From: Alphaproteobacteria bacterium
GTDB taxonomy: Bacteria; Pseudomonadota; Alphaproteobacteria; UBA828
Reading direction: 5' to 3'
Assembly (NCBI GenBank): GCA_963422645.2
Contig: CAXXVO010000008.1
Location: forward strand, 256,001 to 320,000
Length of the DNA stretch: 64,000 bases
Numbering within the stretch: position 1 is the first letter of the stretch; each line of letters starts with the position of its first letter. Below are positions 140-37,984 of this stretch, piece after piece. Position numbers and translations under genes: made by a program. Below the pieces are notes generated by a model. The model saw nothing but the letters and a program-made list of their open reading frames with translations, searched no databases and was not told the origin of the DNA.

Positions 140-480
140 CTACCAGCCCAGCGCGCGGCTCATGCGCCGGGGGTCGGCGGCGCCTTCGATCGCTCCGGAC
201 TCAAGGTCCTTGCGGACCGCGCAGACGCCACCGGTCCAGTGCGACCAGTCGTCCAGACGCTCGATGCGGTGCCCGCGCGCGGCGAGCCGGCCGCTCGTCG
301 CCTCGTCGATGCGCCCTTCGAGGGTGACGAGGCCGGGATGGGCGGCGTGGGGCGCGAAGGAATCCGGATGGCTGTGGGTGACGAGGCGAGGGGCCTCCAC
401 TGCATCCTGCAGGTCCATGCCGAAGGCCAGGTGATTCAGGAGCGTTTGCAGGTTGGCCTGGATCTGGGTGTCGCCGCCGG
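140..480 (-). pseudogene. ggt: gamma-glutamyltransferase family, C-terminal fragment
   Basis: GGDTQIQANLQ...MDLQDAVEAPR...GAADPRR motifs of the GGT small subunit; 5' part replaced by a transposon end at ~480. Confidence 0.8.
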
Positions 481-593
481 CCCATGCACAGGCCGGTTTT
501 TCCAGCCCGATTCAGCCCCGAAAACCAGACGATTTTCCAGGCCATTCGCAAAGACTTCCGGCCGCGATTCGCAAAGACTTTCGTCCGGCTACA
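478..593 (-). mobile_element. Tn7-like transposon end, copy 1 (isolated ~115 bp)
   Basis: Minus strand reads TGTAGCCGGACGAAAGTCTTTGCGAATCGCGGCCGGAAGTCTTTGCGAAT; near-identical to 17861-17976 and 37241-37355. Confidence 0.7.
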
Positions 594-729
594 ACCGCGG
601 GCGAGGGGAACGACGGACATGAGAACCTGCTCGTGCGTTGGGGCGGGATGGGCTGGCCCGGTGGAGTATAGACTGTAACGTAGCGTCGGCGTTTCGCCTT
701 TGACTCAAGCTCAGGGAGGCCAGGACTCA

Positions 730-1494
730 ATGCAACCTGTATGTCTCGTTATCGGAGCCGGTGCAGGCATCGGGAGCAACGTGGCAAGCCGCTTCGCCCG
801 CGAGGGATACCACGCGGTGCTCTGCCGGCGGTCGGACGAGGAGGGGCTGAAGCGCTCGGTCGCTCGCATTGCCGAGGATGGCGGCGCCGCGTCCGGCTTC
901 CTGCTCAATGCCGTGGCGCCCGGTGCCATCGAGGAGCGGATCGCCGCGGTCGAGGCGGACATCGGCCCGATCGAGGTGGCGGTCTACAACCTTGGCGCGC
1001 AAATCGGCGACCGGTCGCTCGCGGAGACCAGCCACAAGATCTTCGAGCTGGGCTGGCGGCTGGGGACCTTCGGCCTGTTCAGGATGGCGTCCGCCCTCTG
1101 CCCGTTGATGGAGCAGCGCGGACGGGGCACGCTCCTCGTCACGTCGTCCACCGCAGCGATGCGCGGCAACGAGGGCCAGCATTCCCATGCGGCCGCCATG
1201 GGCGGGCGGCGCATGCTCTGCCAGAGCCTCAATGCGGAGTTCGGCCCCAGGGGCATTCACGTCGCGCACATCATCATCGACGGCATGGTGGATGCGCCGG
1301 ACACGCTCGGCAAGATGCTCGGCGCAGACGCGTTTCATAGGCTAAGGCAAGAGCGTGGGCTGGAGCGTGACGGCTTGCTGCTGCCCGCCGAGATCGCCGA
1401 CACCTACTTCCATCTTGCCCAGCAGCACCGCTCCGCGTGGACGCACGAGATCGACTTGCGCGCGTTCTCCGACACGCCGTGGTGGAATCGCTGA
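730..1494 (+). CDS. short-chain dehydrogenase/reductase
   Basis: VIGAGAGIG Rossmann motif, AVYNLG, GIHVAHIIIDG typical of this SDR subfamily. Confidence 0.9.
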   Translation: MQPVCLVIGAGAGIGSNVASRFAREGYHAVLCRRSDEEGLKRSVARIAEDGGAASGFLLNAVAPGAIEERIAAVEADIGPIEVAVYNLGAQIGDRSLAETSHKIFELGWRLGTFGLFRMASALCPLMEQRGRGTLLVTSSTAAMRGNEGQHSHAAAMGGRRMLCQSLNAEFGPRGIHVAHIIIDGMVDAPDTLGKMLGADAFHRLRQERGLERDGLLLPAEIADTYFHLAQQHRSAWTHEIDLRAFSDTPWWNR

Positions 1495-1547
1495 CGGCGC
1501 TCTGAACGAAGATTCGCCGTAACCGGTTGATGCGATTGGGGTGTGGG

Positions 1548-1624
1548 TGGCGCGCTCGGGAGGATTCGAACCCCCGACCCCCAGATTCGTAGTCTGGTGC
1601 TCTATCCAGCTGAGCTACGAGCGC
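1548..1624 (-). tRNA. tRNA-Arg (ACG)
   Basis: GCGCTCG acceptor stem, AGCTCAGCTGGATAGAGC D-arm, CT-ACG-AA anticodon loop, GGTTCGAATCC T-arm, encoded CCA. Confidence 0.97.
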
Positions 1625-1727
1625 GCAAGGGCGCGGCGCCCGGCGCCGGCCACGCGGCGGACCCTATCCAAATCGCCCCATGGTCGCAAGAGTGCCGCAA
1701 GGGCAGCGGGGGATGGCGGGTCCCCGC

Positions 1728-2603
1728 TCAACTACGATCCAGCTTTGCGAAGAGCAGCCAGAAGAAGCCGCCGAGGATCGGCAGGGTAACGGCCAGGATG
1801 ATCGTCGAGAGCGAGAAGATGATCGGCACCTGCGACTGGTGCGAGGCCGTCATGGTCCAGTTGTAGATCGGCATCGTCGTCTCCGAGCCGCGCAGGAAGA
1901 TCGAGCGCAGGAGCTCGTTGAAGGAGAGCAGGAAGCCGAAGATGCCCGCCCCGATGATGCCGGGGCGCAGAATCGGGAACTCGATGTCCCAGAAGCGGCG
2001 CCAGCCGGAGGCGCCCAGGTCTTGGGCGGCCTCCAGCAAGCGGTGATCGAAGCGGGTCGCGATGATCAGCACGAGCAGGAGGGAGAAGGGCAGCGACCAG
2101 ACCAGATGGCCGAGGAAGATCGACCAGAGCCCGAGCCGAAGATCGAGGAGGGAGCGGACGGAGATGAAGAGCGCTGCCCCCATGGTAAGCCCCGGCACGA
2201 AGAGGGGAATGAGGGCGACCAGGATCACGCCGCCGGGCCGCCGCATCCGGGGCATGGCGCGGCCCACGGCGGTCGCCACGATCATGCAGACGATGCCGAC
2301 GACGACCCCCATGGCGACGCTTTCGTAGAGTGGCTCTCCCCACTTGTTGAACGCGCCCATGAGCTCGTCGTAGTGCTCCATGGTGAGCGGGTAGGGGATG
2401 CCGGAGAGGGGCCGGCCGCTGAACGACATCACCGCGAGCCAGACCAGCGGGATGTACATCAGCAGGATGACGACCAGCCCGAGCCACTTGGCGATCGCGG
2501 TCCAGAGCCGCCAGGCCGAGACGCGGCGCCAGAAGAGCGCACCGCCGTGGCCGATCTGGCCATCGATGGTCGCCGCGAGCCGGTGTTGCGCCCGATCGCT
2601 CAT
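1728..2603 (-). CDS. ABC transporter permease (PotC-like)
   Basis: Multiple TM helices, EAAQDLGA (EAA) motif. Confidence 0.9.
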   Translation of the reverse strand: MSDRAQHRLAATIDGQIGHGGALFWRRVSAWRLWTAIAKWLGLVVILLMYIPLVWLAVMSFSGRPLSGIPYPLTMEHYDELMGAFNKWGEPLYESVAMGVVVGIVCMIVATAVGRAMPRMRRPGGVILVALIPLFVPGLTMGAALFISVRSLLDLRLGLWSIFLGHLVWSLPFSLLLVLIIATRFDHRLLEAAQDLGASGWRRFWDIEFPILRPGIIGAGIFGFLLSFNELLRSIFLRGSETTMPIYNWTMTASHQSQVPIIFSLSTIILAVTLPILGGFFWLLFAKLDRS

Positions 2604-2607
2604 CGCC

Positions 2608-3528: not shown

Positions 3529-3546
3529 CGCTCGCCGACAAATAAA

Positions 3547-3594
3547 GAGCCCCGGCGCGCCGTGCGAAGGTGTTCGCGGGGCGCACCGGGGCTG
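3547..3594 (-). terminator. stem-loop downstream of the binding-protein gene (terminator or mRNA stabiliser)
   Basis: AGCCCCGG..CCGGGGCT GC-rich inverted repeat followed on the minus strand by CTTTATTT. Confidence 0.55.
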
Positions 3595-3617
3595 TCGTCA
3601 CATCGCGGATGGCGCGG

Positions 3618-6263: not shown

Positions 6264-7313
6264 GTAACTGCCCAGGTCTGATTCTGCCGAGCACTCGGAC
6301 GTGATGGATTGATGGTTCTGACCAGCCAGGGGTCAGGCGGCGCTTTCCCGGAGCAGCGCAGGATTTCAGAAGCGCAATACGGGGATCAGCTGGATTGGAT
6401 CGGGGTGCGCCAGGGTTTCGAGGACATTCCAGCGCTGTTTTCGAGCGGTGGCGATGACGGATCGCAGGTTTGCGAAGTCGCGGGCGCCTTGTATCGAGCG
6501 GAAGCCGCCTGAGATTTTCTGGCGCAGCTTGCCCATTCGGAGGTCGCGCTCGGCCTCGTTGTTGGAGAAGGGGGTTCGCGGATCGGTGAGGAAGCGCAGG
6601 CACCCCTCCTTGTACTTCTGGAGTCGGAGGGCGAGGTTGTGACCGATGCGGCGCTTTTGTCGTCCGCGCTTTCCGGTCTGGAGCGGTGGCATTTCTTCGT
6701 GAGAGGCGATGGCACGTTCGAGGATGCGGTCCCAGGCTCGCGAGATGCGGGCCACCAGTGAGGCGGGCACGTCGCGGTCGTTCTTGTGGGCGAAGCGGGC
6801 GGCTCTGTTGGCACGGATGAGGAGCCGGTGCGTGCTCGTTGCCCAGTCTTCCTTCTCGATCTCGATGAGGGCTTGGAGCTCGCGCAGGTGATGGGCGTTG
6901 CAGGCCCCGTGGCGCACGCCCTCGAGAGCGAAGTAGGTGGCGTAGTCGTCATGGATGACGATGCCGTTGAGCTTCTCGTCGATGTGGCTGCGCCCGGTGG
7001 CGACGCGCAGGATGGTGAGCAACGGGGTGCACAGCACATGGAGCCAATGGGTCCGGGCGGCGATGCGGATGCCGGTCTCGTCGAGGTGTTTGACTGGGGC
7101 TGCGGTGCGGATGATCTCCGCGAGGCGATCGAGGAAGCCCTCGAAGCGCCGGGCGGTGCGCCTTCCCATGGCGACGATGGTGGCTGTTGAGAGCTTGACC
7201 GCGAAGAGGTCGCTCATGACCTCGGCGACCCGCTTCTCGGGAATGAACTGAGCGTGCAGCAGGTAGGTCACCCACGCGGTGATGCGCGGCCCGTATTGGA
7301 CCGGTGCGCTCAC

Positions 7314-9472
7314 CCCAAGTTGGCACTTTTTCCGTTTGTTCGGGGCCGAATTGGCCAGGTTTTTCCGGCTGACACACCAGATATAGCGTTGACGAGAAGG
7401 GCACGCCCCTACATTTGCGATTGCCGTCTCGAACTCCCTTTGTAGTGCCAGGGAATGGTGGGTTTGCAGGATTTCCCTTGACCCCACCACCAAAGCCGAC
7501 ATATCTGAACCCGCCACGACCAAAACGTGCCGGGCGACATGTTCATCAGGGCAACCAAGACCCACACTACCGAAGGCAAGCCGGTCCGCAGCCATCGCCT
7601 CGTGCTCTCGCAGCGCATCGGCGACAAGGTCAGGCAGCGCACGCTTCTCAACCTCGGCACCGACTATCCGGTGCCGAAGGAGAAATGGCGCGAAGTTGCC
7701 GGACTCGCCGAGGCGCTGCTCAACGGCCGCCCGCCGCTGCTCGAAGCCGCGCCGGACGTGCAGGCCGCAGCCGAGGACATCGTCGCCAAGCTCAGGGCCA
7801 GGGGGTTCCGCCCCGAGGCGATACAGGAAGAGGCGCGCAAGCCCGACATCGCCACCGTCGACCTCGATACCCTGGAGCACGAGAACCCGCGCACGGTCGG
7901 CTGCGAGCGCCTGTGCCTCAAGGCCCTCGACGACCTCGGCTTCGCCGACATCCTCCACGGCCTCGATATCAAGGGCCGCGACGGGCGCATCGCCAGCGCG
8001 CTGATCGTCGCCAGGATGGTCCATCCCGCCAGCGAGCGTGACACCAGCCGCTGGCTGCGCCGCGACAGCGCGACCGCCGAGCTCCTGGGGCTGGAGGGCG
8101 ACCGCAAGGCGCTGCGGCGCAAGACGCTCTACCGCATCGGCGACCTGCTCTGGCGCCACCGGGCCGCCATTCAGCGGGAGCTGTTCAACCGCGAGCGCGC
8201 GCTGCTCGACCTGCCCGAAACGATCGCCTTTTACGATCTCACCAATGTCCACTACCACGGCCACACCCACGGCCAGCTTCCCAGGTTCGGGCGCTCCAAG
8301 CAGAAGCGCGACGACTGTCCGCTGATCACGCTGGCGCTGGCGCTCGACGGCGCAGGCTTCCCGCGCAGTTGCGAGATCCTGCCGGGCAACGTGAGCGAGC
8401 CGGGCACGCTGGAGGACGCGCTGGTCAGGCTCGAGGCGGTGTGCGGCGGCACGGCGCCGAAGCCCACGGTGGTCATGGACGCGGGCATCGCCACCGAGGA
8501 GAACGTCGCGTGGCTGGGCGAGCAGGGCTACGACTGGATCGCGGTCAGCCGCGGCGCCAGGCCGCCGCTGCCCGAGGGCGGGCCCGAGGCTCTGCTGATC
8601 ACCAGCGCGCGGCACGAGGTGCGCGCCTGGCGGCTTGCCAGCGAGGACGGCGAGGCGCGGCTCTACGTCGTCAGCGAGGGCAAGAAGAAGGCCGAGAACG
8701 CGATCATCGGCCTCAGGCGGAACCGCTTCGAGGCGGCGCTGGAAAGGCTCCATAGCGGCCTGCCGGTCAAGGGCCGCCTCAAGCGCTACGACAGGGTGCT
8801 GGAGAGCATTGGCCGTCTCAAGCAGCGCTTCTCCACCGTCGCCAGACACTACGAGGTCACGGTCGAGAAGGCGAAAACCGGCCCCAACGCCGCCGCCGTG
8901 CGCTTCAAGCGCAGGCCGCAATACGACGAGGCCGACGAGGGCGCCGGCGCCTATGTGCTGCGCACCAGCCACGTCGACTGGGATATCGAGACGATCCTGC
9001 GGACCTACTGGCGCATCACCGACATCGAGGCCACCTTCCGCAGCCTGAAATCCGAGCTCGGCCTTCGCCCGATCTGGCACCAGCTCGACCGTCGCATCGC
9101 GGCCCACCTGCTGATCGCCGTGCTGGCCTATCACGCCGTGCATCTGATCCGTACCCGACTGGCCGCGCGGGGCATCCACAAGTGCTGGGCATCGATCCGC
9201 GAGGGCATGCGGACCTGGGTGCGGATCACCACGCGACTGCGCCAGACCGACGGCACCTTGATCGTCAACCGCCAGGACACGCGCCCGGCCGCCGAGGTCG
9301 CCCAAATCTCCTCGGCGGCGGGTGTTGACCCCGCCATCCACCGCACGAGGACCCGCCTGACGAGCTGACAGAATCTCACAAAATGTAGTGCCATGTTGGA
9401 ATCGGCAGAGAAAAATATTGCGCCATATCAAAGCGATAAACGACAGCAGAACACAAAAAGTGCCAACCTGGG
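7314..9472 (+). mobile_element. IS1634-family insertion sequence
   Basis: IRs CCCAAGTTGGCACTTTT / AAAAGTGCCAACCTGGG, 4-bp TSD TCAC (7310-7313, 9473-9476). Confidence 0.9.
7527..9368 (+). CDS. IS1634-family transposase
   Basis: MFIR..., RQRTLLNLG, FYDLTN, FGRSKQKRDD, VVMDAG, IEATFRSLKSELGLRPIWH. Confidence 0.9.
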   Translation: MPGDMFIRATKTHTTEGKPVRSHRLVLSQRIGDKVRQRTLLNLGTDYPVPKEKWREVAGLAEALLNGRPPLLEAAPDVQAAAEDIVAKLRARGFRPEAIQEEARKPDIATVDLDTLEHENPRTVGCERLCLKALDDLGFADILHGLDIKGRDGRIASALIVARMVHPASERDTSRWLRRDSATAELLGLEGDRKALRRKTLYRIGDLLWRHRAAIQRELFNRERALLDLPETIAFYDLTNVHYHGHTHGQLPRFGRSKQKRDDCPLITLALALDGAGFPRSCEILPGNVSEPGTLEDALVRLEAVCGGTAPKPTVVMDAGIATEENVAWLGEQGYDWIAVSRGARPPLPEGGPEALLITSARHEVRAWRLASEDGEARLYVVSEGKKKAENAIIGLRRNRFEAALERLHSGLPVKGRLKRYDRVLESIGRLKQRFSTVARHYEVTVEKAKTGPNAAAVRFKRRPQYDEADEGAGAYVLRTSHVDWDIETILRTYWRITDIEATFRSLKSELGLRPIWHQLDRRIAAHLLIAVLAYHAVHLIRTRLAARGIHKCWASIREGMRTWVRITTRLRQTDGTLIVNRQDTRPAAEVAQISSAAGVDPAIHRTRTRLTS

Positions 9473-10066
9473 TCACGCCGTTCGGGAAGACGGCTGTCGT
9501 CACGGTGCCGCAGGCAGCGCAGAGGCAACGATGGCCGCGATGTTCGGTGACCTCGAGGGGCTGCGGCTCGGGCACATCGAAGACCTGCCGGCAGACGGGG
9601 GCTCCGTGACGGTCAGCGTCCGACAGCGGCGCGCCGCAGCCCTCACAGGCGGACGGATCATGATCGACGACATGGTCGGGCGTCGCGGTCCGCTCCAGGG
9701 TAGTTCCCTTGTGGCCCGGCTGGCCGCCACTGGGCCTGTCGGACTTGCCGCGCTGGCTCCGGGTGCGCTTCTCCCGGTCACCGCTCTTCTTCTTCAGACC
9801 GTCGCTGGCCGGCGGCTTGGAGCTGGTGGTGCTGTCGAGCGCGGCGCTGCGCTCGAGTTCGGCGATCCGCTCGCGCAAGCGGGCGTTCTCCCGCTCCAGC
9901 GCGTCGTTCTCCTTGACCAGGGCCGCGCTCAGGCGCAGCAACCTCTGGCCCCATTCCCGAATGGCTTTGACGGCGGTCATTGCGAAGGATTGTGGGGTGA
10001 AAAGGTCCTGCAGGCACGCGAAGGCCTCGTCGTGGGCAGCGAGGTCCTCGTGCCAGCGCGACACTG

Positions 10067-10735
10067 TCACGAACCCTCGTCGGCCTCGACGGCCATGATC
10101 GCGGCCAGCACCGCCAGGCGTTCGCCCGCCGGCATGGCCTCGTAGCGCCGGCCCCAGTTGGCCGCCTTGCGCTTGATGCACTGGCGCTCGGTGAAGTTCC
10201 GGCCGGCGAAGCTCGCCCAGTGCACCCGGTCAGGCGCGAAGTTGAACCACACGACCTCGGTCCGCACCTGGGCCTGGGTCGTCACCTGCAGCGCCAGCCG
10301 GCGCCAGCCCGCCAGCAGCTCGTCATAGAGCGCAGACGGGTGGCCCGAGACCATCACCTGGCAGGGCAGACCCTTGAGCAGTTCGAGGAGCGCGACGTGG
10401 TCGGCCTCCTCGTACTCGAAGCGGTAGCGCTGCGACGAACGCCGGGTCGCGTGCAGATAGGGCGGATCGCTGTAGACCAGCTCCGGGCCCAGAAACGGGA
10501 ACGAGGCCAGGAAGGAATGGGCGCAGCCGTGCACCAACTCCACCGGGTAGTCGCAGCCAAAGGCCTCAAGCGCCCGCTCGTCGCGGTCGATCCCGATCGA
10601 GCGCATGGCCGCAGGCTTGCGCTTCATCAGCGCCCCGCCCCCAAGATGGCTCTCGATATAGACAGAGTGCGGCGGCATCAGCGCAATCAGCGCCTAGCTC
10701 AGACCGGTCGTCGCCTTCGACCCGAAATACCCCAC
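10067..10735 (-). pseudogene. Dam/D12-class DNA adenine methyltransferase with premature TAG
   Basis: GYFGSK...S*ALIALMPPH, YIESHLGGGA (motif I), YSDPPY (motif IV); RBS GAGAGGAG; in-frame TAG at 10694-10696. Confidence 0.8.
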
Positions 10736-10781
10736 CGGCTGCTCCTCTCATGCGAGAGTGCAACCCATAGGCGAGAGAACC

Positions 10782-13141
10782 TCAGACTTCCTGACCTCTG
10801 CTGATTTTAGGTGACACGAGCCGCGCGGATTCCGAGGCCCCGTCGATGTCGTAGACTATGCGCAGACGGGTGCCGGGGAAGACCGTTTCGGTGGCGTTCA
10901 GGTCGCTCAGAACCGCATCGATCCAACGGTCGCAGGCGTCGTTTGCGAGGCCAAGAATGTGGACCCGCAGGAGGCCATTGCCAGGATCCGGCAGGATGTC
11001 GGCATCGGCGGTGAGCAGCGCTTGAAGCAGTTTCCGGGGATGGGGCTTGTGGCCCTGCGCCTGCATGACGGGAATCATCATGCGGGTTTCGGCGCGGTAG
11101 GCGATCATCCGGATGACGTCGAGGAGGAGGCGCTCGCGCGCGGGCAAGGCATCGAGCTGCTCGGCTTCGTCGAGGTCGCCGGCCCGGCAGTGCTTGGGCG
11201 TCTCCCTGCGGCTGGCCCTGACGATGTCGCGGACATCCTGGAGGTCCCTGACTTCCCTCCTGAGTTCCGCCGTCGGCTGCTTCTTCCGGGCCGTGTCGGC
11301 GATGCGGTTGCGCAGGCGGCCAAGCTGGCGGTCGAGGCGATGGATTGCCTTGTCATAGGCCCGCCGCAGCGGGTTGACGACCATGGCGGCGGGATCGAGA
11401 GGCTCGAGCTCGTGGGTCGGCAGGGCGTCGAGATTGAACTCGTCACGCATGTACTTGAAGAAGTTCTCCTGCGACCAGCGCGAGAACATGGCGCCCGCAA
11501 CCTCAGCCATCGGCTTGTGCGGATCGGTGGTGATCAGCGGCACCTGACGGCCGTTGTCGAGCAGGCGGCGGATCTGGCGCACCCTGAAGCCGTTCGGCAA
11601 CGTCACCGGCTTCTCAGCCAGCCGCATGGTGGCGCTGCCGTCCGCCGCCGGTCCGTGAATGGGAACGGTCATCGCGCCGAAGTCCTCGGCCGGCCAGTCC
11701 TCGCCCCTGAAGTTCTTGTGCCAGGTCAGGCAGGCGACGCCGCGCCTCGCCAGCCGGCGGAACAGATCCGGGCTCCAGCCCTCGCGGTCGAAGACCAGGG
11801 TGAGCGCCGGCTGGCCGGGATGCTCGGCGGTCAGGTCCGGCGCCCCGGCGCCAACGATCCCAAGCTCCTGCAGCGCCGGCACCACGTCGGCTTCGATGGC
11901 CGCGACCATCTTCGGGTCCAGCGGCTTGTGCAGACAGAGCAGCGGCTTGCCGCCCAGAGCGTTGATCCAGTAGCTGGCGCTCGCCGGCAGGCACAGCTTC
12001 TCGCGCGAGACGAAGTGCTTGGGCAAGCGCCCCTTGCGGCCGGAGTAGACCTTGACGTGCCCGTCGATGGCCAGCGTCGCCCAGAGCTCCGGCTCGTCGG
12101 CGCCTGCCAGCGCCTGGCAAGGGCGAGCTGCCACGCCCGCACGCCGGCCTCGTCGTCGGCGATGAGAGCGATCTTGCGGCGCAGCGTCTTGACCTCGGGG
12201 CAGCGATCGAGGCCGAGAATGGCGCCCCATTCGCCCGGCGCCTGGTAGCGCAGGCTCTCGGGGTTGCGCACCCGCGCCAAGGTCATGAAGGCCAGGAAGA
12301 GCAGGATCGTAGGCAAGCCGTAATAGCCCTTCGGCAGCAATGGCAGGAGACCGGTCTCGGAGAGAAGACCTTCCTTCAGCAGGGCCGGCAGGGCGGCGAG
12401 CACGCCGCCGAAGCGGACACCGCGGGCGGCGGCGGCGAACTGCGGTTCGACCGGCCCCGCCTGTCCACAACTGGCCAGAACCCGAGCCGGAACATCGCAA
12501 GTCGCACGCCCCATCGGCGCCTGCCGGTCCCGCCGATCGCGCGCGCTGCGATCCGTTTGCGGCTGCGCTTCCAGCCCCGGCGCCGTCTCCGGCCCCGGGG
12601 CACCGGTACTCTCTTCATCGACACGGCCTTCAGGAGCCGCACCCGCGTCAGGCGGCGCAGCCAGCGCTGAGCGTCCGGGCTCCCCATCCGCCTCCGTGTT
12701 GCCGATCAGTCCCTGACGGCGCCACTTGTTGACCGATGGCGCTGACACGCCGAGAACCCGGGCCGCCGCAGAGCCGCTCAGGCCCGATGCCAGCAACGCC
12801 GTCGCCTTCTCCGCCAACTCCGGAGTGAACACCGACGGCCCGCGACCGCGCCGGGGCTTCATGAACCCCGCTTCGCCCTCGGCCAGGTAGCGCCGTCGTG
12901 CGCGCTGCACCGTCGCGCGCGAGACAGCGAAAGCGTCAGCCAGTTCCTGCGGCGAGACCGCGCTGATCGCCGCGAGGCGGCCGATCCGCAAGAGCATGGC
13001 CGTGCGGTCATCGGCGGCGTGGCTGTCAAAGGGAATGAGGTTGGAAAAGTAGGTGAAGGTGTCGTCCGAGATCAGGACGGCGAAGCAGCTGTTGCCGATC
13101 GAGACCGCCTCTGGAGGGCACATTGGGAGGGTACTGGGCAT
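10782..13141 (-). pseudogene. HTH-containing DDE transposase, frameshifted near 12105
   Basis: Two N-terminal HTH-like segments, then IDGH / FDREG / RWSQENFFK triad in a second frame; a 2-bp excess (CAG-GC-GCC-GAC) explains the shift; stop codon is the last 3 nt of the IR. Confidence 0.8.
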
Positions 13142-13296
13142 GGTTGAGACCGTGCAATTGGTATCAAATTATAATATCAGACCTCGGGCGCGACACCCAG
13201 CGAAAAACCGCCTGAAACAACCGAAATGTATCAGAATTCAAGGAGTTCCCGGCACGCTGCCCAGAACAGCCAGCATCACGAGGTCAGGAAGTCTGA
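10782..13296 (-). mobile_element. unclassified DDE insertion sequence, copy 1
   Basis: Perfect 17-bp IRs TCAGACTTCCTGACCTC, 3-bp TSD ACC; same ends at 47651-50747. Confidence 0.9.
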
Positions 13297-13647
13297 ACCT
13301 ATACAGTCAAGCGGGGATCAACGACGCGCCGACGGCGAAACGGCACCGACGGCAAGCAACATCAGCACGCACTCAGAACTGGCGGCGGGGTACCTGGGTA
13401 GTTACGACAATCTCGTAATTGATATCGGTAAGGTCTTGAAACAAGCCGAGATCGTCACGCAACAGGTTGACCACTTCGTTGCCTTGCCGTGAAACAGATT
13501 CTGGCGAGGGACGCGCGGTGACGCTCCAACCCCGAGGTCACGGCGTTGGCTGAGACCGCCAGGGTCGGCGCGGCGGAGACGAGCGGTGGACTTCCCCGAT
13601 GTGGTCCGAAGCGGTCCCGCGTAGCCGGCTGACGAGATGCGGGCCGC

Positions 13648-14928
13648 TCAGGCGGCCTTGAGTTCCGCGCCTACGGGCTCGATGTAGCCGTAGCGGCGGA
13701 GCATGCGGATCCACCGAGGAGCGTTGCGCTTGACCATCAGAGCGTCGTAGTCGGCCGTGCGGTCGTAGTAGGGCCTGCCGGTCTTGAGCACCACATAGAT
13801 GATGCGCAGCATCTTGTGAGCGCCGGCGACGATGGCGCGCTTGTAGCCGCGCCGGGCGGCGAGGGCGCGGTGATGAGCCTCGAACTGGCACCCCTTGGTT
13901 CGGGCCGCGCCGTGGGCACACTCGACGAGGCAGGCGCGCAGGGTCTTGGAGCCCATGCGGGTGCGTGCGTTGCGGCGCTTGCCCCCGCTCTCGTTGTTGC
14001 CGGGGCAGAGCCCGGCCCAGGCGGCGAAGTGCTCCTTGGAGGCGAACACGCCGATGTCGGGGCCGATCTCGATGAGGATGGTCGAGGCGGCGGTGCGGTC
14101 GATGCCGGGGATGGTGGTCAGCAGACGGAGCTGCTCCTCCCACGGTGTCATCTGCCCGTCGATCTTCCTGGTGTAGGACGCGATGCGCGCCTCAAGCGCG
14201 TCATGCTCCTCCAGCAGGTCGTTGAGCATGAAGCGGTCGTTGTCGCCCAGGCTCAGGGTGAGCGCCTCGCCGAGCCCCTCCAGCTTGTTCGCAACGTGGC
14301 TGGTGAGCGAGGCGAGGATGACCTCGCGCGCCGTCCCCTGCGCCAGGCCGTCGAGGATCTTCCGGCCGTTGACGCCGAAGACGTCGGAGAGGATGCCGCC
14401 GATGCGCGCACCGGCGCGGTCGATGATCTTCTGCACGCGGTTGCGCACGGCGGAGCGCTGCCTGACCAGGACGCGGCGCTGGCGGCTCAGTGCGCGCAGC
14501 TCCCGGAACGGCTCAGGCGGAACGTGGGAAGGCGTGCAGAGCCCGAACTGGCACACGCAGGCCAGCCACACGCTGTCCGCCACGTCGGTCTTGCGCCCCT
14601 TCAACTGCTTCACCTGACGCGCATGCACCAGGATCGCCTCGAGCCCGGCCGCCTCCAGGGCCGCGAAGGGCGCCTGCCAGTAGACCCCGGTCCCTTCCAT
14701 CACCGCAGCCTCGACGCCGTGACCGGTCAGCCACGCGACCATCTCCTCCAGACCGCTCGGCAGCGTGCCGAAGCAGCGCGTCTCCACCACCGGCTCACCC
14801 TCGCCCTCACAGAGGCGAACCGTCGCGGTGATCTCCATCTTGTGCACGTCCAGACCCGCCGCGCGCGGCCGGACGACGTGCAAGCCTTCCGTCTTCATCG
14901 CCTTCCTCCTCATTTGCGCTCTCGCCAC
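13648..14928 (-). CDS. IS110-family DEDD recombinase
   Basis: GLDVHK, MEGTGVYW, KTDVADS, IPGID, GLCPGNNESGG (catalytic Ser); the true start may be MKTEG slightly downstream. Confidence 0.95.
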   Translation of the reverse strand: MARAQMRRKAMKTEGLHVVRPRAAGLDVHKMEITATVRLCEGEGEPVVETRCFGTLPSGLEEMVAWLTGHGVEAAVMEGTGVYWQAPFAALEAAGLEAILVHARQVKQLKGRKTDVADSVWLACVCQFGLCTPSHVPPEPFRELRALSRQRRVLVRQRSAVRNRVQKIIDRAGARIGGILSDVFGVNGRKILDGLAQGTAREVILASLTSHVANKLEGLGEALTLSLGDNDRFMLNDLLEEHDALEARIASYTRKIDGQMTPWEEQLRLLTTIPGIDRTAASTILIEIGPDIGVFASKEHFAAWAGLCPGNNESGGKRRNARTRMGSKTLRACLVECAHGAARTKGCQFEAHHRALAARRGYKRAIVAGAHKMLRIIYVVLKTGRPYYDRTADYDALMVKRNAPRWIRMLRRYGYIEPVGAELKAA

Positions 14929-14929
14929 G

Positions 14930-15200
14930 GCGGCGTACGATCACGCCGTGGCATCGCCACGGTGGAGGCGGGGACAGCGGTCGGAAGAACACGCATCCGA
15001 CGAGCGGGTGCGGTGCAATTTGCCGCGCGTCCACGGCCACGGGCCGGGTACAATACGGGGTGCGGAGCCGGCCGCCGGAAGCAGTTTTGTCATCGGGAAC
15101 TACGTCACCGATATAACGACGCTCACACGTCCCCACCTCCGCCAATACCCATCCTGACACGGCAAATGGGTGCAAGCGCAAGGAAAACGTCAGCCGAACC
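14930..15200 (-). ncRNA. candidate IS110 bridge RNA (5' non-coding end)
   Basis: Long structured non-coding end with a donor-matching segment GCGCGGCAA...hairpin...TGTT; boundaries approximate. Confidence 0.5.
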
Positions 15201-15490
15201 GCTCCTGTTTCATGCCACGGGGTGGCTCAGAACCGCGGGGACCATGACTGTTTTGTTGGGAAAGCCCACTGGCAGCCTTGCCGGCGCCTTGACCCAGAGA
15301 TCGATGTCGGCGTCGCGATCGGCCGCCCACAGCAGCTCAATGATTACGTTGCCGGGATCGCTGATCCCTTCGGCATCGTTCTCGGCCTCGGCGCTTGGAT
15401 TGAGAAAGGGCAGCAGCATGAGCACCATTGCGACGAAGGCTGCCAGCGCGAGCAGCGTGACGTCGCGGAAGATCGTGCCGCTGTCGTCGT

Positions 15491-16085
15491 CAAACTCGTC
15501 CATCGGCCGCGAGAAGCTCGCTGTAGAGTGTGGAGGTGCCCGTCGCCAGCATACGGTAGTTATAACGGTAAGCCACAGGCCCAGCACAGCCCCTTCCAGG
15601 GTGGTGTAGAGAGCGACCGACATGCCGCTGATGAGGGTGGAGATCATCGGCTGCACGGCGGCAAGCGTGCCGGCGTCTTCCGCCGAGACGCCGGAGAGCG
15701 CGATGATGAATCCCGCCACCGTGCCGATCAGTCCGAGCACGACCAGCGCAGCGGCGATCTGCCTTACCACGGCAATGCGACTGAAGAGCCGCGCCTTGAG
15801 GGCCTCGGCCATGAACTCAGGGCGGACGGGCGCGCGGGTCCACTTGTCGGGAAGGTCCACCGTCCCGCTCTCTTCCAGCCGGTTGAGAGCCGCGCTGGTC
15901 TTGAACAGGCGGTAGCCGCATAGCGCCAGGCCCACCGCGAAGACGCCGAAAATGACGAAGACGAGGCCGGTGGGGTCCGCCTCGGCAATCCGCGCGATCC
16001 AGCCCTGCGCGCCGGCGAGCCCGAGCAGGGCCGCGCCCACGATATTGACGATCAGGAACCGGTAGAGGAGCAGATAGCGGCGCAA
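15491..16085 (-). pseudogene. MotA/TolQ/ExbB proton channel family protein, frameshifted near 15560
   Basis: LGLIGTVAGFI and GMSVALYTTL motifs; the natural C-terminus NYRMLATGTSTLYSELL lies in another frame after GTTATAAC. Confidence 0.75.
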
Positions 16086-16227
16086 CCGGTCGCCTCCCGG
16101 GTCGTGGCGGCGGCACGCGCGGGCGCAATGCACCCGGACCACTGTCCCCGACCGTCTATCGAACGTCGGCGCCTGTCAATGGTGATGTCCTCGTCCGACA
16201 GACGACGAATAAAGGTGTGCCCGGCTG

Positions 16228-16515
16228 TCAGGCCGCAGCAAAGCGCTCCACCTTAATCCGCTGAGCGCGGTCGCGGGCCTGCCAAAGATCATAGGCCATC
16301 TGCATTCCAAGCCAGGTCTCAGGCGTCGAACCGAAGGCTTTTGACAGCCTTATTGCCATGTCGATCGAAACGCCCGTGCGCTCGTTAATGAGTTCGGAGA
16401 GTGCTTGGCGCGTGACCCCAAGTCCCCGAGCAGCCCGTGTCACGGTAAGTCCCAGGGGCTCCAGGCATTGCCGCTTCACGATCCCACCCGGATGCGGCGG
16501 ATTGTGCATCGCCAT
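16228..16515 (-). CDS. higA: HigA antitoxin
   Basis: MHNPPHPG, LGVTRQALS HTH, AIRLSKAFG..W. Confidence 0.92.
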   Translation of the reverse strand: MAMHNPPHPGGIVKRQCLEPLGLTVTRAARGLGVTRQALSELINERTGVSIDMAIRLSKAFGSTPETWLGMQMAYDLWQARDRAQRIKVERFAAA

Positions 16516-16526
16516 GTCCCGTCTCC

Positions 16527-16805
16527 TCAGTGATAGTCGACGTAATCTACATCGACCGCCGATCCGTCTTCGAAACGAAAGGTCACACGCCAGTTGCTGG
16601 AGACCGAAACCGCATAGTGGCCGTTCAGCCTTCCCTTCAACTCATGCAAACGGAACCCGGGCAGGTTCATAGCGTCCGGTCCATGACTGCTGTCGAGAGC
16701 CGCCAGAATGTCTCTCAATCTTTGGACGTGGTTTGGTGCTACCCATCGGGCCGTCCTGCCATCGTAGAGTGCCTTCAGGCCCCGATGCCTGAACGACGCA
16801 ATCAT
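16527..16805 (-). CDS. higB: HigB/RelE toxin (plasmid maintenance killer type)
   Basis: MIASFRHRGL, PGFRLHELKG, VSSNWRVTFRF, DYVDYH; toxin-first order. Confidence 0.92.
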   Translation of the reverse strand: MIASFRHRGLKALYDGRTARWVAPNHVQRLRDILAALDSSHGPDAMNLPGFRLHELKGRLNGHYAVSVSSNWRVTFRFEDGSAVDVDYVDYH

Positions 16806-16919
16806 TACTACACGGTAGAATGGCGCCTGACAGTTGACAAGCGACACACAGCCAAATTTCCATGTTTGCCGCCCGCCTGTGCCTCCAGGCTATATCGTCA
16901 TCGAGTGGGGCTGATCGCG

Positions 16920-17804
16920 ATGCGCCGCACCCTCGTCCCCGCAGGCGGCGGCATCGACAGCACCGCCCTCGCCCTCCTCGTCCTGCGCGAGACCGAAGAC
17001 GAGGTCGTCCTCTCCTACTACCGCGAACCGGCCCGCGAGCTGCCGGAGCGCATCGCCCGCGAGCAGGCCGCAAGCGAGGCCGTCGCAGACTGGCTCTCCC
17101 GCAACGTCCGGCCCGTGCGCCACGTCAGCCGCGACGCCCTGCGCGTGGAGACCGGCCCCCGCGCAAGATGGCCAATTCGGGACGGGAGAGGATGGGAGGG
17201 CGTCTGCGACCCCACATTTGAGCGCGCCTGGGGCATCGACCGATACGCAACCCACGCCGACGAGGCCGAGCGCCACCGCGCCGACCGGGTGATGCCCGGC
17301 ATCACCTCGTGGGACACCGCCGACGACATGCACCGCATGTACTGGCATCCGGCCTACCGCGCGCGCACCGCCGTCCCCATGGAACTCCCCTTCTTCCCCG
17401 GCTGGGAGGACGGCGCGCAGTGGCCGCCGTCGCGGGACGACCCCTTCGGACCCGTCGCCGGGCGCTTCATGCTCCAGGCCCTGCTCCCGCCCGGGCTGGA
17501 GGCGCTCACCTGGCGATGCACCGTCGCGGCAGAGCCCTGCGGACGCTGCCCCCGATGCCGCCTCAACGCCTTCTTCGAGCGCTTCTGCCGGGGACGCCCG
17601 GCGGACCAGGTCGCCCGCATCGACGACGCCCTCGAGCGACACCGCGGCGCAGGCCGATGGTACGCCGACGCCGACCCCGGAAGATGGACCGGTCACGACG
17701 GATACGACGCCGCAGAACGCGCCGTCGAAGACCCCGAATGGTGGAAGGCCGAACTCGAACGCCCGTGCCGCCCCGGCGCCCGCCCCGGTCCCGACCGCGC
17801 CTGA
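16920..17804 (+). CDS. QueC-like PP-loop ATPase with Cys4 zinc motif
   Basis: LVPAGGGIDST (variant of SGGxDS) and WRCTVAAEPCGRCPRC. Confidence 0.65.
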   Translation: MRRTLVPAGGGIDSTALALLVLRETEDEVVLSYYREPARELPERIAREQAASEAVADWLSRNVRPVRHVSRDALRVETGPRARWPIRDGRGWEGVCDPTFERAWGIDRYATHADEAERHRADRVMPGITSWDTADDMHRMYWHPAYRARTAVPMELPFFPGWEDGAQWPPSRDDPFGPVAGRFMLQALLPPGLEALTWRCTVAAEPCGRCPRCRLNAFFERFCRGRPADQVARIDDALERHRGAGRWYADADPGRWTGHDGYDAAERAVEDPEWWKAELERPCRPGARPGPDRA

Positions 17805-17860
17805 AACCCTCACGCACCGCCCGTGCACGGGCCCTGAACCCCCCGCGCAGCGCTCCTTCA

Positions 17861-17976
17861 CGGCCCATGCACAGGCCGGTTTTTCCAGCCCGGTTCAGCC
17901 CCGAAAACCAGCCGATTTTCCAGGCCATTCGCAAAGACTTCCGGCCGCGATTCGCAAAGACTTCCGGCCGGCTACA
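17861..17976 (-). mobile_element. Tn7-like transposon end, copy 2
   Basis: Terminal ...CCGGCTACA with two ATTCGCAAAGACTT repeats; abuts a 5'-truncated IS1595 transposase. Confidence 0.7.
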
Positions 17977-18621
17977 GGCGAGACGATCAAGGAGTCCGCC
18001 GAGCGCTGCGGGATTGCGCCGAGCACGGCGCATCGCTGGCGCCACCGCTTCCTGGCGGCGGTTCGGCAAGCGCCGGACCGGCTTGCCGGGATTGTCGAGG
18101 CCGACGAGACCTTCGTTCTCGAGAGCCGCAAGGGGGAGCGGAAGCTGGATCGCAAGCCGCGCCGTCGCGGCGGCAAGGCCCGCAAACGCGGCCTCTCGCG
18201 CGAGCAGGTGCCGATCCTGGTCGCCGCCGACCGTGCGGGCGAGACCCTCAGCCATAGCCTGCCTGCGCTGAACGCAGACAACGTGAAGGAGGTGCTGGAG
18301 CCGGTCGTCGCAGCGGATGCGCTGCTCGTCTCCGACGCCAAGCGCTGCTATCCGCCCGTCGCGGCGGCGCTCGACATACCTCACGAGAGCATCAACGCTT
18401 CTGCTGGCGAACGGGTCCGGGGCGCGCTGCACATCCAGACGGTCAATAGCCGCCACAGCCAGATCAAGGGCTTCCTGCGCGGCTTCCGCGGCATCGCCAC
18501 CAAGTACCTGGACAGCTATCTGAGGTGGTTCCATCTCATCGAACTCGGCGATCAGCCATCGCCCAGAGCGTGCCTCGAGGCGGCGATGGCCAGACCGCGC
18601 CTACGCTTTGCGAATTGAGCC
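17977..18621 (+). mobile_element. IS1595-family element remnant (5'-truncated transposase and right IR)
   Basis: AHRWRHRFL, GIVEADET, LVSDA, HIQTVNSRH, GIATKYLDSYLRWF; stop at 18618, end ...GAATTGAGCC. Confidence 0.88.
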
Positions 18622-32624: not shown

Positions 32625-32770
32625 CATTGGCAATCGCGTGGTCCGCCGGGATGCGGCACGCGGGTCAAGAGGGCACGGCGGGAGGCGCGGCATGGGCCGC
32701 CGCCACCGCCGTTGCGCCTGTGTAGGGGCGAGCCGAATGGGTGGCTCGCCATCGGAACGAAGGAAACAGC

Positions 32771-34897: not shown

Positions 34898-35036
34898 GGA
34901 ACGCCGCCGAGAGAAGCGACACCTTGCAAACGGCGTCCCCGTCGCCCACATCGTGGCGTGGCGGGGGCGTAGGCCCACTGCCCTGCGCTGCTGCGTTGGG
35001 CGGATCGAGCCAGGCGCAACGGTGGACGGACCGACC

Positions 35037-36434
35037 ATGAAGGCGTTGAACGCAATCAGGTTATCGGGTCGCGAGGTCCTGCCCTTGATCGAGGGCGGCA
35101 AGGGCATCGGCGTGACCAACGGCCTGAGCTCCGGCGCCTGGGCCGCCGCTGGCGGTGTCGGCACATTCTCCGGCGTCAATGCCGACTACTACGACGAGCA
35201 CGGCCGCGCAATTCCGCAGACCTACCGCGGCCGCACCCGCAAGGAGCGGCACGAGGAGCTGGTCGACTACGCGATCAGGGGCGGCATCGCCCAGGCGCGC
35301 ATCGCCTACGAGACTTCGGGCGGCGACGGGCGGCTCCACATGAACGTGCTGTGGGAGATGGCTGCCGCCGAGCGCATCCTCCACGGCATCCTCGACGCCA
35401 CGCGCGGCATCATTCATGGCGTGACCTGCGGCGCCGGCATGCCCTACCGCCTGGCCGAGGTGGCCGCACAGTACGATGTCCAGTATTACCCGATCATTTC
35501 GTCGGCGCGGGCCTTCCGCGCGCTCTGGAAGCGCGCCTACCATCGATTCTCTGACTGGATGGGCGGCGTCGTCTACGAGGACCCCTGGCGTGCCGGCGGC
35601 CATAACGGCCTCTCCAACAGCGAAGACCCCGAACAGCCCGAGCCCGCCTATCCGCGGGTCATGGCGCTGCGCCAGCAGATGCGCGAGTACGGCCTCGACG
35701 ACGTTCCGATCGTGATGGCGGGCGGGGTCTGGTACCTGCGCGACTGGGAGGACTGGATCGACAACCCCGAGCTCGGCCCTGTGGTGTTCCAGTTCGGCAC
35801 CCGCCCGCTGGTGACCGAGGAGAGCCCCATCTCCGAGCAGTGGAAGCGTAAGCTACTATGCATGAGGGAGGGGGACGTGAAGCTCAACCGCTTCAGCCCC
35901 ACCGGCTTCTACTCCTCGGCGGTGCGCAACCACTTCATCAGGGAGCTCGCCGAGCGCGAGCATCGGCAGGTCGCCTACACCGCAGAGCCCATCGGCGACC
36001 ATAACCAGATCTTCACGCCGGGGCCGCGCGGACGCTCTTTCTATCTGACCAAGGGCGATCTGGGGCGGACCGAGGCGTGGATGGACGAGGGCTTTAACGC
36101 CGTGTTGAAGACCCCCGACACCACGATCATCTTCGTCACGGACGAGAAGGCGCGCGAGATCAGGGCCGACCAGGCGGCCTGCATGGGCTGCCTCAGCGTC
36201 TGCCGCTTCAGCAACTGGGCGACCAACGAGCTGGGCTCGACCGGCAAGAAGACCGATCCCCGCAGCTACTGCATCCAGAAGACGCTGCAGGAGATCATCC
36301 ACGGCGAAGACATCGACGACCAGCTCATGTTCGCTGGCCACGCGGCCTTCCGGTTCGCGAACGATCCCTTCTACTCGAACCGCTTCATTCCCACCGTGCG
36401 CCAGCTGGTGGAGCGCCTGCTCACCGGCGACTGA
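35037..36434 (+). CDS. nitronate monooxygenase / 2-nitropropane dioxygenase family flavoprotein
   Basis: LIEGGKG, VTCGAGMP, AGGHNG, FQFGTRP. Confidence 0.85.
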   Translation: MKALNAIRLSGREVLPLIEGGKGIGVTNGLSSGAWAAAGGVGTFSGVNADYYDEHGRAIPQTYRGRTRKERHEELVDYAIRGGIAQARIAYETSGGDGRLHMNVLWEMAAAERILHGILDATRGIIHGVTCGAGMPYRLAEVAAQYDVQYYPIISSARAFRALWKRAYHRFSDWMGGVVYEDPWRAGGHNGLSNSEDPEQPEPAYPRVMALRQQMREYGLDDVPIVMAGGVWYLRDWEDWIDNPELGPVVFQFGTRPLVTEESPISEQWKRKLLCMREGDVKLNRFSPTGFYSSAVRNHFIRELAEREHRQVAYTAEPIGDHNQIFTPGPRGRSFYLTKGDLGRTEAWMDEGFNAVLKTPDTTIIFVTDEKAREIRADQAACMGCLSVCRFSNWATNELGSTGKKTDPRSYCIQKTLQEIIHGEDIDDQLMFAGHAAFRFANDPFYSNRFIPTVRQLVERLLTGD

Positions 36435-36464
36435 CCGCCGCCGCCCCGCCTGCCGCCGTCTGCT

Positions 36465-37240
36465 TCACCGCTCCTTCACATAGGGAACGCCGCTCGCCTT
36501 GCCTTGGGCGGCACCGCCTTGCCCACGAAGCCTGCGAGCAGCAGCACGGTTAGCAGGTAGGGCAGCGCCTGGATTGCTTGCACGGGGATCACGCCGACGC
36601 CGGGGATATCCACGCCTTGCAGCCTGGCCTGCACGGCATCGGCGAAGGCGAAGAGGAAGCAGGCGAAGAGGGTCGGCACCGGGCGCCACTTGCCGAAGAT
36701 GAGCGCGGCGAGGGCGAGGTAGCCCATTCCTGCGCTCATGTCGCGCACGAAGAGCGCGTTCTGGGCGATCGAGAGCGACGTGCCGGCAACGCCGCAGAGG
36801 ATGCCGCAGACGATCATCGCCCGGTAGCGCATGCCGGCGACCGAGATGCCCGCCGTGTCCACCGCCTCCGGCGCCTCGCCGACCGCGCGAAGCCTCAGCC
36901 CGAAGCGGGTCTTGTAGATGAACCACGCCGCGAGCGGGACCATGCCGAGCGCGATATAGACGATCAGATTATGGCCGCTCGCCATCTCCGAATAGATCTG
37001 GCCGATGAAGGGCACGTCGCTCAGCCGGTCGGCGAAGGGGAAGTGAATCGGGCGGAAGCGCGCGCCATCCCCCACCAAGGGCGTATGCCCCCCCTGGCCG
37101 AACCAGGCGAGTGAGAGCACCGGCCCGAGCCCCGCCACCAGGATATTCAGCGCCATGCCCGAGACCACCTGATCGCCCCGGTGGGTGACGCAGGCGAAGG
37201 CGTGAACCATCGCGAGCGCGACCGAGGCGCCCACGCCGGC
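36465..37240 (-). pseudogene. nucleoside/sugar ABC permease, 5'-truncated and frameshifted
   Basis: GDQVVSGMALN, GLRLRAVGE, GYLALAALIFGKW; cut by a transposon end at 37241; GCCTT duplication at 36496-36505 shifts off KASGVPYVKER. Confidence 0.85.
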
Positions 37241-37984
37241 TGTAGCCGGCCGGAAGTCTTTGCGAATCGCGGCCGGAAGTCTTTGCGAATGGCCTGGAAA
37301 ATCGGCTGGTTTTCGGGGCTGAACCGGGCTGGAAAAACCGGCCTGTGCATGGGCCATGAAGGAGCGCTGCGCGGGGGGTTCAGGGCCCGTGCACGGGCGG
37401 TGCGTGGGGGTTTCAGGCGCGGTCGGGACCGGGGCGGGCGCCGGGGCGGCACGGGCGTTCGAGTTCGGCCTTCCACCATTCGGGGTCTTCGACGGCGCGT
37501 TCTGCGGCGTCGTATCCGTCGTGACCGGTCCATCTTCCGGGGTCGGCGTCGGCGTACCACCGGCCTGCGCCGCGGTGTCGCTCGAGGGCGTCGTCGATGC
37601 GGGCGACCTGGTCCGCCGGGCGTCCCCGGCAGAAGCGCTCGAAGAAGGCGTTGAGGCGGCATCGGGGGCAGCGTCCGCAGGGCTCTGCCGCAACGGTGCA
37701 TCGCCAGGTGAGCGCCTCCAGCCCGGGCGGGAGCAGGGCCTGGAGCATGAAGCGCCCGGCGACGGGTCCGAAGGGGGCGTCCCGCGACGGCGGCCACTGC
37801 GCGCCGTCCTCCCAGCCGGGGAAGAAGGGGAGTTCCGTGGGGACGGCGGTGCGCGCGCGGTAGGCCGGATGCCAGTACATGCGGTGCATGTCGTCGGCGG
37901 TGTCCCACGAGGTGATGCCGGGCATCACCCGGTCGGCGCGGTGGCGCTCGGCCTCGTCGGCGTGGGTTGCGTACCGGTCGATGC
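37241..37984 (+). mobile_element. Tn7-like transposon end, copy 3, with the 3' part of the QueC-like gene
   Basis: Inverted near-identical copy of ~17233-17976. Confidence 0.75.
37413..37984 (-). pseudogene. QueC-like gene, 5'-truncated second copy
   Basis: IDRYATHAD...CGRCPRC...PDRA nearly identical to 16920-17804; PP-loop half missing. Confidence 0.8.

Follow-up and report, generated by a model that had tools for sequence, protein, structure and literature searches.

Three copies of a 116-nt end in the window

The stretch analysed here (hereafter the window) comprises 64,000 nt of an alphaproteobacterial genome, positions C9:256001-320000 of a 5.9-Mb assembly in 23 contigs, and carries three copies of a 116-nt repeat, considered below as the right, attR-type end (R end) of a Mu-like transposable prophage. 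Sequence comparison within the window placed two copies, 97% identical, at 478-593 and 17861-17976, and a third, inverted copy, 96% identical, at 37237-37355, with the terminus itself at 37241. Judged by length and identity, 116 nt at 96-97% lie far beyond chance expectation. The original prediction, made from the window alone, had described the same end at these three sites (the inverted copy at 37241-37355) as a ~115-bp end of a Tn7-like transposon, and alignment at 96-97% identity bears out the three occurrences.

All three copies terminate in ...GGCTACA, and homology is lost from the very next base, the outer flanks reading ACCGCG for copy 1, GGCGAG for copy 2 and GCCGGC, on the other strand, for copy 3. 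Each copy holds two ATTCGCAAAGACTT cores with a spacing of 23 nt (Table 1) and, as read from the sequence, two CTGGAAAA boxes; the 23-nt period, the two boxes and the sharp stop at TGT/ACA that had been described earlier are present in every copy. The predicted length fits copy 1, the only bare 116-nt end, and fails for the other two. Copies 2 and 3 have 748 nt in common at 99% identity (17233-17980 versus 37237-37984), copy 2 matches other copies in the genome back to 16888, and phage DNA runs inward for 1089 nt in copy 2 and for 744 nt in copy 3.

Table 1. Copies of the R end in the window and the genes that they interrupt
Feature	Coordinates	Strand	Details
Copy 1, solo R (attR-type) end	478..593	-	terminus ...GGCTACA at 593; cores 544-558, 567-581
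ggt, C-terminal piece	140..477	-	Pfam G_glu_transpept positions 418-510 of 512
ggt, first nine codons, ATG at 620	594..620	-	copy 1 outer flank, read from sequence
Copy 2, 1089-nt R arm	16888..17976	-	terminus 17976; cores 17927-17941, 17950-17964
IS1595-family transposase gene, without N-terminus	17977..18618	+	DDE_Tnp_IS1595 3.3e-18; HTH_23 match from profile position 17
Copy 3, 744-nt R arm, inverted	37241..37984	+	terminus TGTAGCC... at 37241; cores 37253-37267, 37276-37290
Branched-chain amino-acid ABC permease, without N-terminus	36476..37240	-	BPD_transp_2 1.2e-21, profile positions 61-250 of 269

The genes proposed for the outer flanks, a ggt start, an IS1595 transposase and an ABC permease, were confirmed, the latter two by Pfam matches, and each copy is an orphan end lying in a different gene. 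On its inner side copy 1 is cut 116 nt from the terminus (R-116) and joined to ggt, the inner flank being single-copy DNA; between the C-terminal piece and the start codons most of ggt is gone. Copy 2, which breaks the IS1595-family transposase gene, contains the 3' portion of 'y', the last ORF of the phage (stop at 17804), followed by the 116-nt end, and is cut at 16888 (R-1089) against a duplicated host segment of 1.4 kb. This segment (15465-16887) includes a MotA/ExbB-family gene and is 100% identical to C12:112971-114396; it is a recent segmental duplication and adjoins the truncated inner edge of the copy. Copy 3 breaks the ABC permease gene and is cut at 37984 (R-744) against single-copy DNA. 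Recurrent breakpoints occur among the R arms: in four independent ones, copy 3 and those at C5:252171, C13:74329 and C18:138849, the cuts all fall in a 60-nt interval, R-743 to R-801.

End types, target duplications and phage genes across the genome

A search of the genome with a 120-nt query returned 40 matches, 25 of them at 96-100% identity, 11 at 89-90% and four partial. The left edge of one 5-kb copy was searched for an inverted repeat of the R end, with a negative result; the partner end came to light only through the 15-nt core that both ends have in common. Searches with this shared core revealed a second type of cluster, in the opposite orientation and with two cores 96 nt apart, which defines the left (L) ends. 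These fall into two subtypes, start with TGTAG and hold the same GAAAGTCnTTGCGAAT site as the R end. In total, 85 ends were counted with at most three mismatches to 27-nt terminal cores, comprising 41 R, 24 L1 and 20 L2 ends (44 L ends).

Read inward, the R end consists of the TGT terminus, two tandem 23-nt sites (core GAAGTCTTTGCGAAT) and two CTGGAAAA/TTTTCGGGGC boxes, whereas the L end starts with TGTAGGGGG or TGTAGACGG and has one site at the terminus and a second 96 nt inward, with a box of the same type. Alignment of 22 L1 ends showed that homology starts exactly at TGTAGGGGGACGAAAGTCATTGCGAATCCGG (TGTAG) in 22 of 22, with outer flanks that all differ; the 20 L2 ends are defined by TGTAGACGGACGAAAGTCGTTGTGAAT. 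All 85 ends start with TGT (a few L ends read TGTGG) and form a sharp boundary with host DNA, their outer flanks are different throughout, and many lie inside genes.

Identical 5-nt flanks were detected in 20 of the 26 adjacent convergent end pairs on the same contig. None of the 26 pairs matched when the flanks were taken 7 nt further out, nor did any at 4 nt or 6 nt. All 20 duplications have G or C in the middle (P ~4e-4 at 67% GC); a pyrimidine occupies position 2 in 13 of them and a purine occupies position 4 in 15, in agreement with the target preference of Mu, N-Y-(G/C)-R-N. A second end type sharing the repeat, together with 5-bp duplications, had been anticipated in the original prediction, and both are present in the genome. 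The same holds for the class to which it had assigned the end, one with TGT...ACA termini, several subterminal sites and a 5-bp duplication that inserts into coding DNA without an att site. Two L2 ends, at C12:72306 and C12:72755, face each other at a distance of 450 bp and have no matching duplication.

Neither a partner end nor a matching 5-nt flank was found inside the window, as had been reported, and no orphan L end genome-wide carries the complementary 5-mer of any of the three window copies. Given the 44 L ends in the genome, the partner end does exist, outside the window. Comparing the flank list by hand also yielded two cross-contig 5-mer matches between orphan ends (C5:244783 R with C6:164266 L1, and C14:63015 R with C19:154904 L2), which we do not regard as evidence because ~0.9 would be expected by chance on our own estimate. 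The occurrence of three ends within 37.5 kb, which had seemed odd for an element with target immunity, is a real and mild excess (Poisson P = 0.0024 per such stretch, with ~0.4 such stretches expected genome-wide), and immunity need not be invoked, since the window copies are remnants and the region around them is dense with insertion sequences (IS).

The DNA between the ends encodes phage proteins. The R arm is transcribed toward R and contains a gene for a J-like central tail fibre (phrog_31, 9.4e-95; Pfam FNIII-A_GpJ and Phage-tail_3), followed by ORFs of 277 and 414 aa to which no Pfam or PHROG family was assigned; in R arms of the 90% type, a 2OG-Fe(II) oxygenase replaces these two ORFs. 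The genes of the L arm are transcribed toward L. The longest L1 arm (C6, locus L035) encodes, in order, GemA (Pfam, 1.3e-24), an HNH endonuclease, an endolysin, a lipoprotein-like ORF, a phrog_436 member, the small terminase (phrog_426), the large terminase, the portal (phrog_10963, 3.4e-57) and a Mu-F head morphogenesis protein, and finishes with 270 nt of non-coding L end. Further phage genes are found in an L2 element of 22.7 kb (C8:85071-107742) flanked by the duplication GACCA; they encode Portal_Mu (3.6e-78), a Dam methylase, a protease for head maturation (phrog_976, 4e-65), the major head protein (phrog_1005, 8e-74) and Mu gp36. In many copies, homology continues unbroken from both ends as far as Mu-hallmark genes. 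By their family matches, the genes between the ends can be regarded as hallmark genes of transposable phages; GemA is used, with TnpA, TnpB and Mor, as a marker for locating transposable prophages (PMC8705779). No Mor/C family turned up in the general scans of the interiors, which included no search aimed at Mor/C.

Taken together, sharp termini, ends of two types, 5-bp duplications, phage genes and a near-complete viral relative that has the same layout and encodes A, B and Gam (described below) argue strongly that the 116-nt repeat is an attR-type end, the one on the tail-fibre side, and that the Mu-like transposable prophages to which it belongs form a family that has decayed; we put the probability of this reading at roughly 0.88. 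The Mu-type phage DNA of the interiors is what identifies the repeat as an attR-type prophage end instead of the end of a Tn7-like transposon.

The competing view, that the ends belong to a cellular transposon of the Tn7, Tn5053 or Tn552 type and that the phage genes are cargo or chance neighbours, is very improbable and largely refuted. A TGT terminus, several subterminal sites of ~22 nt and a 5-bp duplication, the last observed here, are common to Tn7, Tn5053 and Mu, and the absence of an att site would also suit such an element. Against it stand the unbroken homology that connects both ends with Mu-hallmark genes in many copies, the lack of TnsA, TnsC, TniQ and TniR in Pfam scans of interior ORFs, and sequence relatives that are Mu-like viral contigs of the same layout. 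Tn7 itself has tnsABCDE and attTn7 targeting, and neither was seen here; nor did the Pfam scans of interior ORFs show tnsA/tnsB/tnsC with a target selector (tnsD/tniQ or CRISPR), or the flanks of the 85 ends a fixed att site downstream of a conserved gene. Of the broad class originally proposed (Tn7/Tn5053/Mu-type), the Mu-type component is therefore retained and the Tn7-like one abandoned, the interiors holding GemA, Portal_Mu, Mu-F, Mu gp36, terminases and a J-like tail fibre and no tnsABC/tniQ set in the ORFs scanned with Pfam.

Relatives, transposase genes and decay of the copies

The portal protein shares 52.5% identity with its counterpart in Microcystis phage Mae-JY22, a phage with Gam and a DUF3486 gene in its record, and 55-56% with those of IMG/VR contigs. 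The putative A and B proteins of Mae-JY22 had no match in the genome. The closest near-complete relative found was the viral contig IMGVR_UViG_3300029651_000002 (hereafter G429; 43.6 kb, CheckV 95%). One of its strands starts with an HTH regulator, A (616 aa; phrog_310 transposase, 2.3e-80) and B (AAA_22; phrog_296 DNA transposition protein, 1.8e-50), and continues with Mu Gam, GemA, lysozyme, Mu gp27, large terminase, portal and Mu-F, the terminus lying ~245 nt before the contig end. The other strand encodes a capsid fusion protein, the tape measure, a J-like protein of 1608 aa, small ORFs and Dam, followed by the other terminus. This two-arm layout is the one deduced from the remnants, with L beside Mu-F and R beside the J-like gene. 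The portal and Mu-F of G429 are 55% and 45% identical, respectively, to those of the element. Unlike the copies in this genome, G429 is autonomous (A, B, Gam, capsid, tape measure), and its end sites differ, being of the GATAAAT type. A and B are also present in the related viral contig G430; a PDB sequence search with the A protein of G429 gave no match.

By eye, the J/Dam-side terminus of G429 (TGAAGCCGCGCGCGATAAATG..., L071 1-250) resembles the right end of Mu (TGAAGCGGCGCACGAAAAACG...CACGATAAATGCG, L081), and in both genomes a DNA-modification gene is the last before that end. In a more distant contig (G431) the terminase, portal, Mu-F and capsid genes share one orientation, and a single inversion of the block from the early genes to Mu-F in a Mu-type ancestor would yield the two-arm layout.

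Outside this genome the ends themselves are scarce. In a genome of another family of the same order (G028), L-end-like DNA stands beside Mu-F and a truncated portal, twice. A second genome (G012) has an L-end-like site once and alone; as the 58 kb inward of it contain neither an R site nor a homologue of any protein of the element, we consider it a solo or unrelated remnant. In alphaproteobacterial metagenome-assembled genomes, loci whose portals are 61-75% identical have no L-end motif within 3 kb. This genome has the L-end pattern 22 times, and none of 400 other genomes sampled from the class has it; the R arm gave only short, weak matches in 40 relatives, the best (G012) reaching 69% over 157 nt. 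The absence of the motifs from the collections searched indicates that the expansion is lineage-specific among them.

Several results weigh against the prophage interpretation. No copy in the genome is of full length or accompanied by a cognate transposase, and the genome gave no match at E<=1e-4 when the G429 and G430 versions of A, B, Gam, capsid and tape measure served as tblastn queries, while GemA, the small and large terminases, portal, Mu-F, Dam and J from the same set were found. A six-frame scan for phrog_310 gave 78 matches, the best ~20 of which (up to 122 bits) all lie in one repeat of 5.2 kb; the remainder belong to IS21 and other insertion sequences, and phrog_296 matched only the 5.2-kb repeat above a weak background, none of these being cognate. 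Pfam PF09299 and PF02914 found nothing in the genome, a result that carries no information, as the controls were silent as well. The relationship to G429 is moderate (portal 55%, J 29% identity), and the ends of that contig have just a short GGAAGA...GGAAGAAG motif in common with the L end. The exact end motifs are absent from the 400 class genomes, IMG/VR and metagenome contigs, which leaves no autonomous parent in hand. Six of the 26 adjacent pairs lack a duplication, among them an R-R pair, an L2-L2 pair and a pair 123 kb apart. Finally, that the 23-nt repeats bind the transposase is a presumption. The original prediction had expected at least one copy to have a linked TnsB-like gene; in this genome, none of the copies has a linked cognate transposase.

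The 5.2-kb repeat is a transposon of 5189 bp, here called Tn-X (for example C8:135589-140777, locus L050 201-5389), with ~10 full copies at >=99.8% identity and ~15 partial copies, all outside the window. Tn-X carries genes for an HTH protein, for A (536 aa) and B (292 aa, AAA_22) and for a DUF3991-Toprim protein, and is bounded by its own ends, TGAGCGCGCGCGG... and ...GGGCGCACGCTCA, with TGAGCGYGCGC inverted ends and ATTTGWTG-like repeats. Its A and B, the sole Mu-type A/B pair in the genome, fall in phrog_310 (6.7e-35) and phrog_296 (7.1e-19). Among the interior scans, rve and AAA_22 domains appeared only in nested Tn-X, with its own inverted repeats. A diverged paralogue lies near C22:64929-67722, and an R end with three tandem 23-nt sites instead of two (C8:107666-107743) is joined directly to a truncated Tn-X.

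This inventory allows for the remnants being still mobile, as non-autonomous, mini-Mu-like elements moved in trans by the A and B proteins of Tn-X. These belong to the same PHROG families as phage A and B, Tn-X looks young and active, approximately half of its copies are inside or close to L/R elements, and mini-Mu needs only L and R ends with MuA and MuB supplied in trans, as described in PMC3145075. We nonetheless hold such mobilisation to be distinctly unlikely: the ends of Tn-X bear no likeness to the L/R sites, its A protein gave no tblastn or blastp match with phage A proteins, and all 20 bounded elements have different internal junctions, with no mini-element at two loci. Since its ends are unlike the L/R sites, Tn-X is treated here as a separate, probably Mu/Tn552-like, transposon that is often nested in the phage remnants.

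The bounded elements (n=20) range from 893 bp to 22.7 kb, and every one is internally deleted. Mapped on the reference arms they show 20 different structures, with L arms of 168 nt to 9.5 kb and R arms of ~50 nt to 5.8 kb; the arms are joined directly at C8:755146, C18:138849, C18:280709 and C22:13199 and otherwise via IS21, Tn-X or other inserts. No internal junction was found at two loci, and nothing thus indicates that the elements moved after shrinking. Some 45 of the 85 ends stand alone, their partner having been lost. Two candidates for an intact prophage, contig C1 (28 kb) and C16:160-195 kb, proved not to be one.

Part of this decay involves an IS21-family element (2551 bp; IstA 508 aa, IstB 242 aa) with ~65 copies, one of them in the window (48114-50668). 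This element adjoins several copies of the ends, and IS21 elements have TG...CA termini and several subterminal repeats, all of which would fit if the 116-nt repeat were simply the end of an ordinary IS of this kind. That reading is scarcely credible. The ~65 copies have sharp boundaries of their own that are unrelated to the L/R ends, and no istA/istB pair is bounded by the latter. The element is also nested inside L/R elements, at L+198 in three (both orientations) and at R-113 to R-126 in three, and its nesting with its own borders refutes it as the owner of the ends. These positions point to an IS21 insertion hot spot beside the CTGGAAA/TTTTCGGGGC boxes. Copy 1 in the window is cut at R-116, where IS21 sits in other copies, yet has no IS21 there. 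Piles of nested insertion sequences occupy 6264-15257 and 47644-50749 of the window and include a family of ~1096 bp with >100 genome copies, another stretch with 47 copies and a 2165-bp IS4-like element; a massive IS expansion is under way in the genome.

For the decayed Mu-like prophages we infer the following course. Together with an AAA+ partner, a Mu-type DDE transposase would bring an L end and an R end together, cut at the CA-3' ends (the transferred strand) and join them to the target with a 5-bp stagger. Such joining would permit insertion almost anywhere, leave a 5-bp duplication with a central G/C and disrupt genes. The phage copies in this genome have decayed by internal deletion, often at nested insertion sequences. 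In the window, the phage entered the ggt, IS1595 transposase and ABC permease genes, and later deletion or rearrangement removed the L end and most of the interior, together with most of ggt in the case of copy 1; for this copy, one deletion from R-116 through the element and the L end into ggt explains the structure. With a single end and no transposase, the three window copies can no longer move, and they are one-ended, immobile scars of the Mu-like phage.

The element is of a known kind, and the unusual part is the presence of 85 ends in 5.9 Mb. A tentative explanation for this number, which we consider unlikely, is that the phage spread here as a proliferating transposon and not as a single-copy prophage. 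The bounded copies would then be products of abortive replicative transposition, deleted while being made, or natural mini-Mu elements mobilised in trans, possibly driven by Tn-X A/B, in place of 40-kb prophages decayed in place. Were this so, the orphan ends in the window would mark sites at which transposition had caused deletions and inversions, and such events would be reshaping the chromosome to this day. The reading as decayed prophages settles the identity of the repeat as a Mu-type phage att end, not a new Tn7-like system, and accounts for the three gene disruptions in the window. The literature searched, with subscription journals outside its coverage, contained no apparent description of a comparable swarm of natural mini-Mu-like remnants. 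The combination of 41 R and 44 L ends, 20 duplication-bounded remnants, no cognate transposase and a heavy IS load may interest the transposable-phage field, the genome being a natural record of how transposable phages decay and of how often their copies seed deletions and rearrangements.

Comparison with known systems

Transposable phages have genomes of ~36-40 kb with A and the AAA+ ATPase B between the ends. The bounded copies described here measure 0.9-22.7 kb, as expected of remnants, and contain no cognate A or B, which makes them defective members of the group; their sharp TG...CA termini, 5-bp duplications (5 or 6 bp in the group), differently arranged repeats at L and R and the hallmark genes found in them (GemA, small terminase, Portal_Mu, Mu-F and gp36) agree with those of the group. 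Engineered mini-Mu elements offer a parallel to the bounded copies of 0.9-14 kb, as both consist of L and R ends round a reduced interior without transposase; the copies keep their 5-bp duplications. They differ from mini-Mu in being of natural origin, in having an individual deletion each and in showing no sign of movement after shrinking.

Mu itself resembles the element in its TG...CA terminus, several ~22-nt sites per end, insertion almost anywhere and 5-bp duplication with a central G/C preference, and the two have GemA, the gp27-type small terminase, Portal_Mu, Mu-F and gp36 in common. The ends of Mu, as read from AF083977, have a CGAAA-type site at the left terminus and the next ~100 nt in, and right sites packed within 50 nt, the same asymmetry as the 96-nt spacing at L and the 23-nt spacing at R in the element. 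The site sequences, in contrast, are unrelated, and Mu has a myovirus tail where the element has a siphovirus-type one with a J-like tip. The left end of Mu lies next to the repressor and that of the element next to Mu-F; the genes of Mu run in a single direction, whereas the element consists of two divergent arms. Mu also carries A/B, which the copies in this genome lack.

A further comparison is with the transposable siphophages of Pseudomonas of the B3/D3112 type. Phages of the D3112 group start with TGT and end with ACA, as the element does (PMC5977238). Mu is stated to make a 5-bp duplication and TG-CA ends to be general for Mu- and B3-like phages (PMC8705779). The left and right arms of the B3/D3112 type are transcribed in opposite directions (PMC8705779 and the B3 annotation), and the tail end is the right end, as it is here. 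According to its annotation, the left arm of B3 holds early genes only (A, B, GemA, Mor), with lysis, packaging, head and tail all on the right arm. In the element and in G429, unlike B3, the arm of A/B also holds lysis, terminase, portal and Mu-F, and capsid and tail are on the other. This two-arm order with the L end by Mu-F, common to environmental viral contigs and unlike both Mu and the B3 annotation, deserves specialist attention alongside the copy number and the missing cognate transposase.

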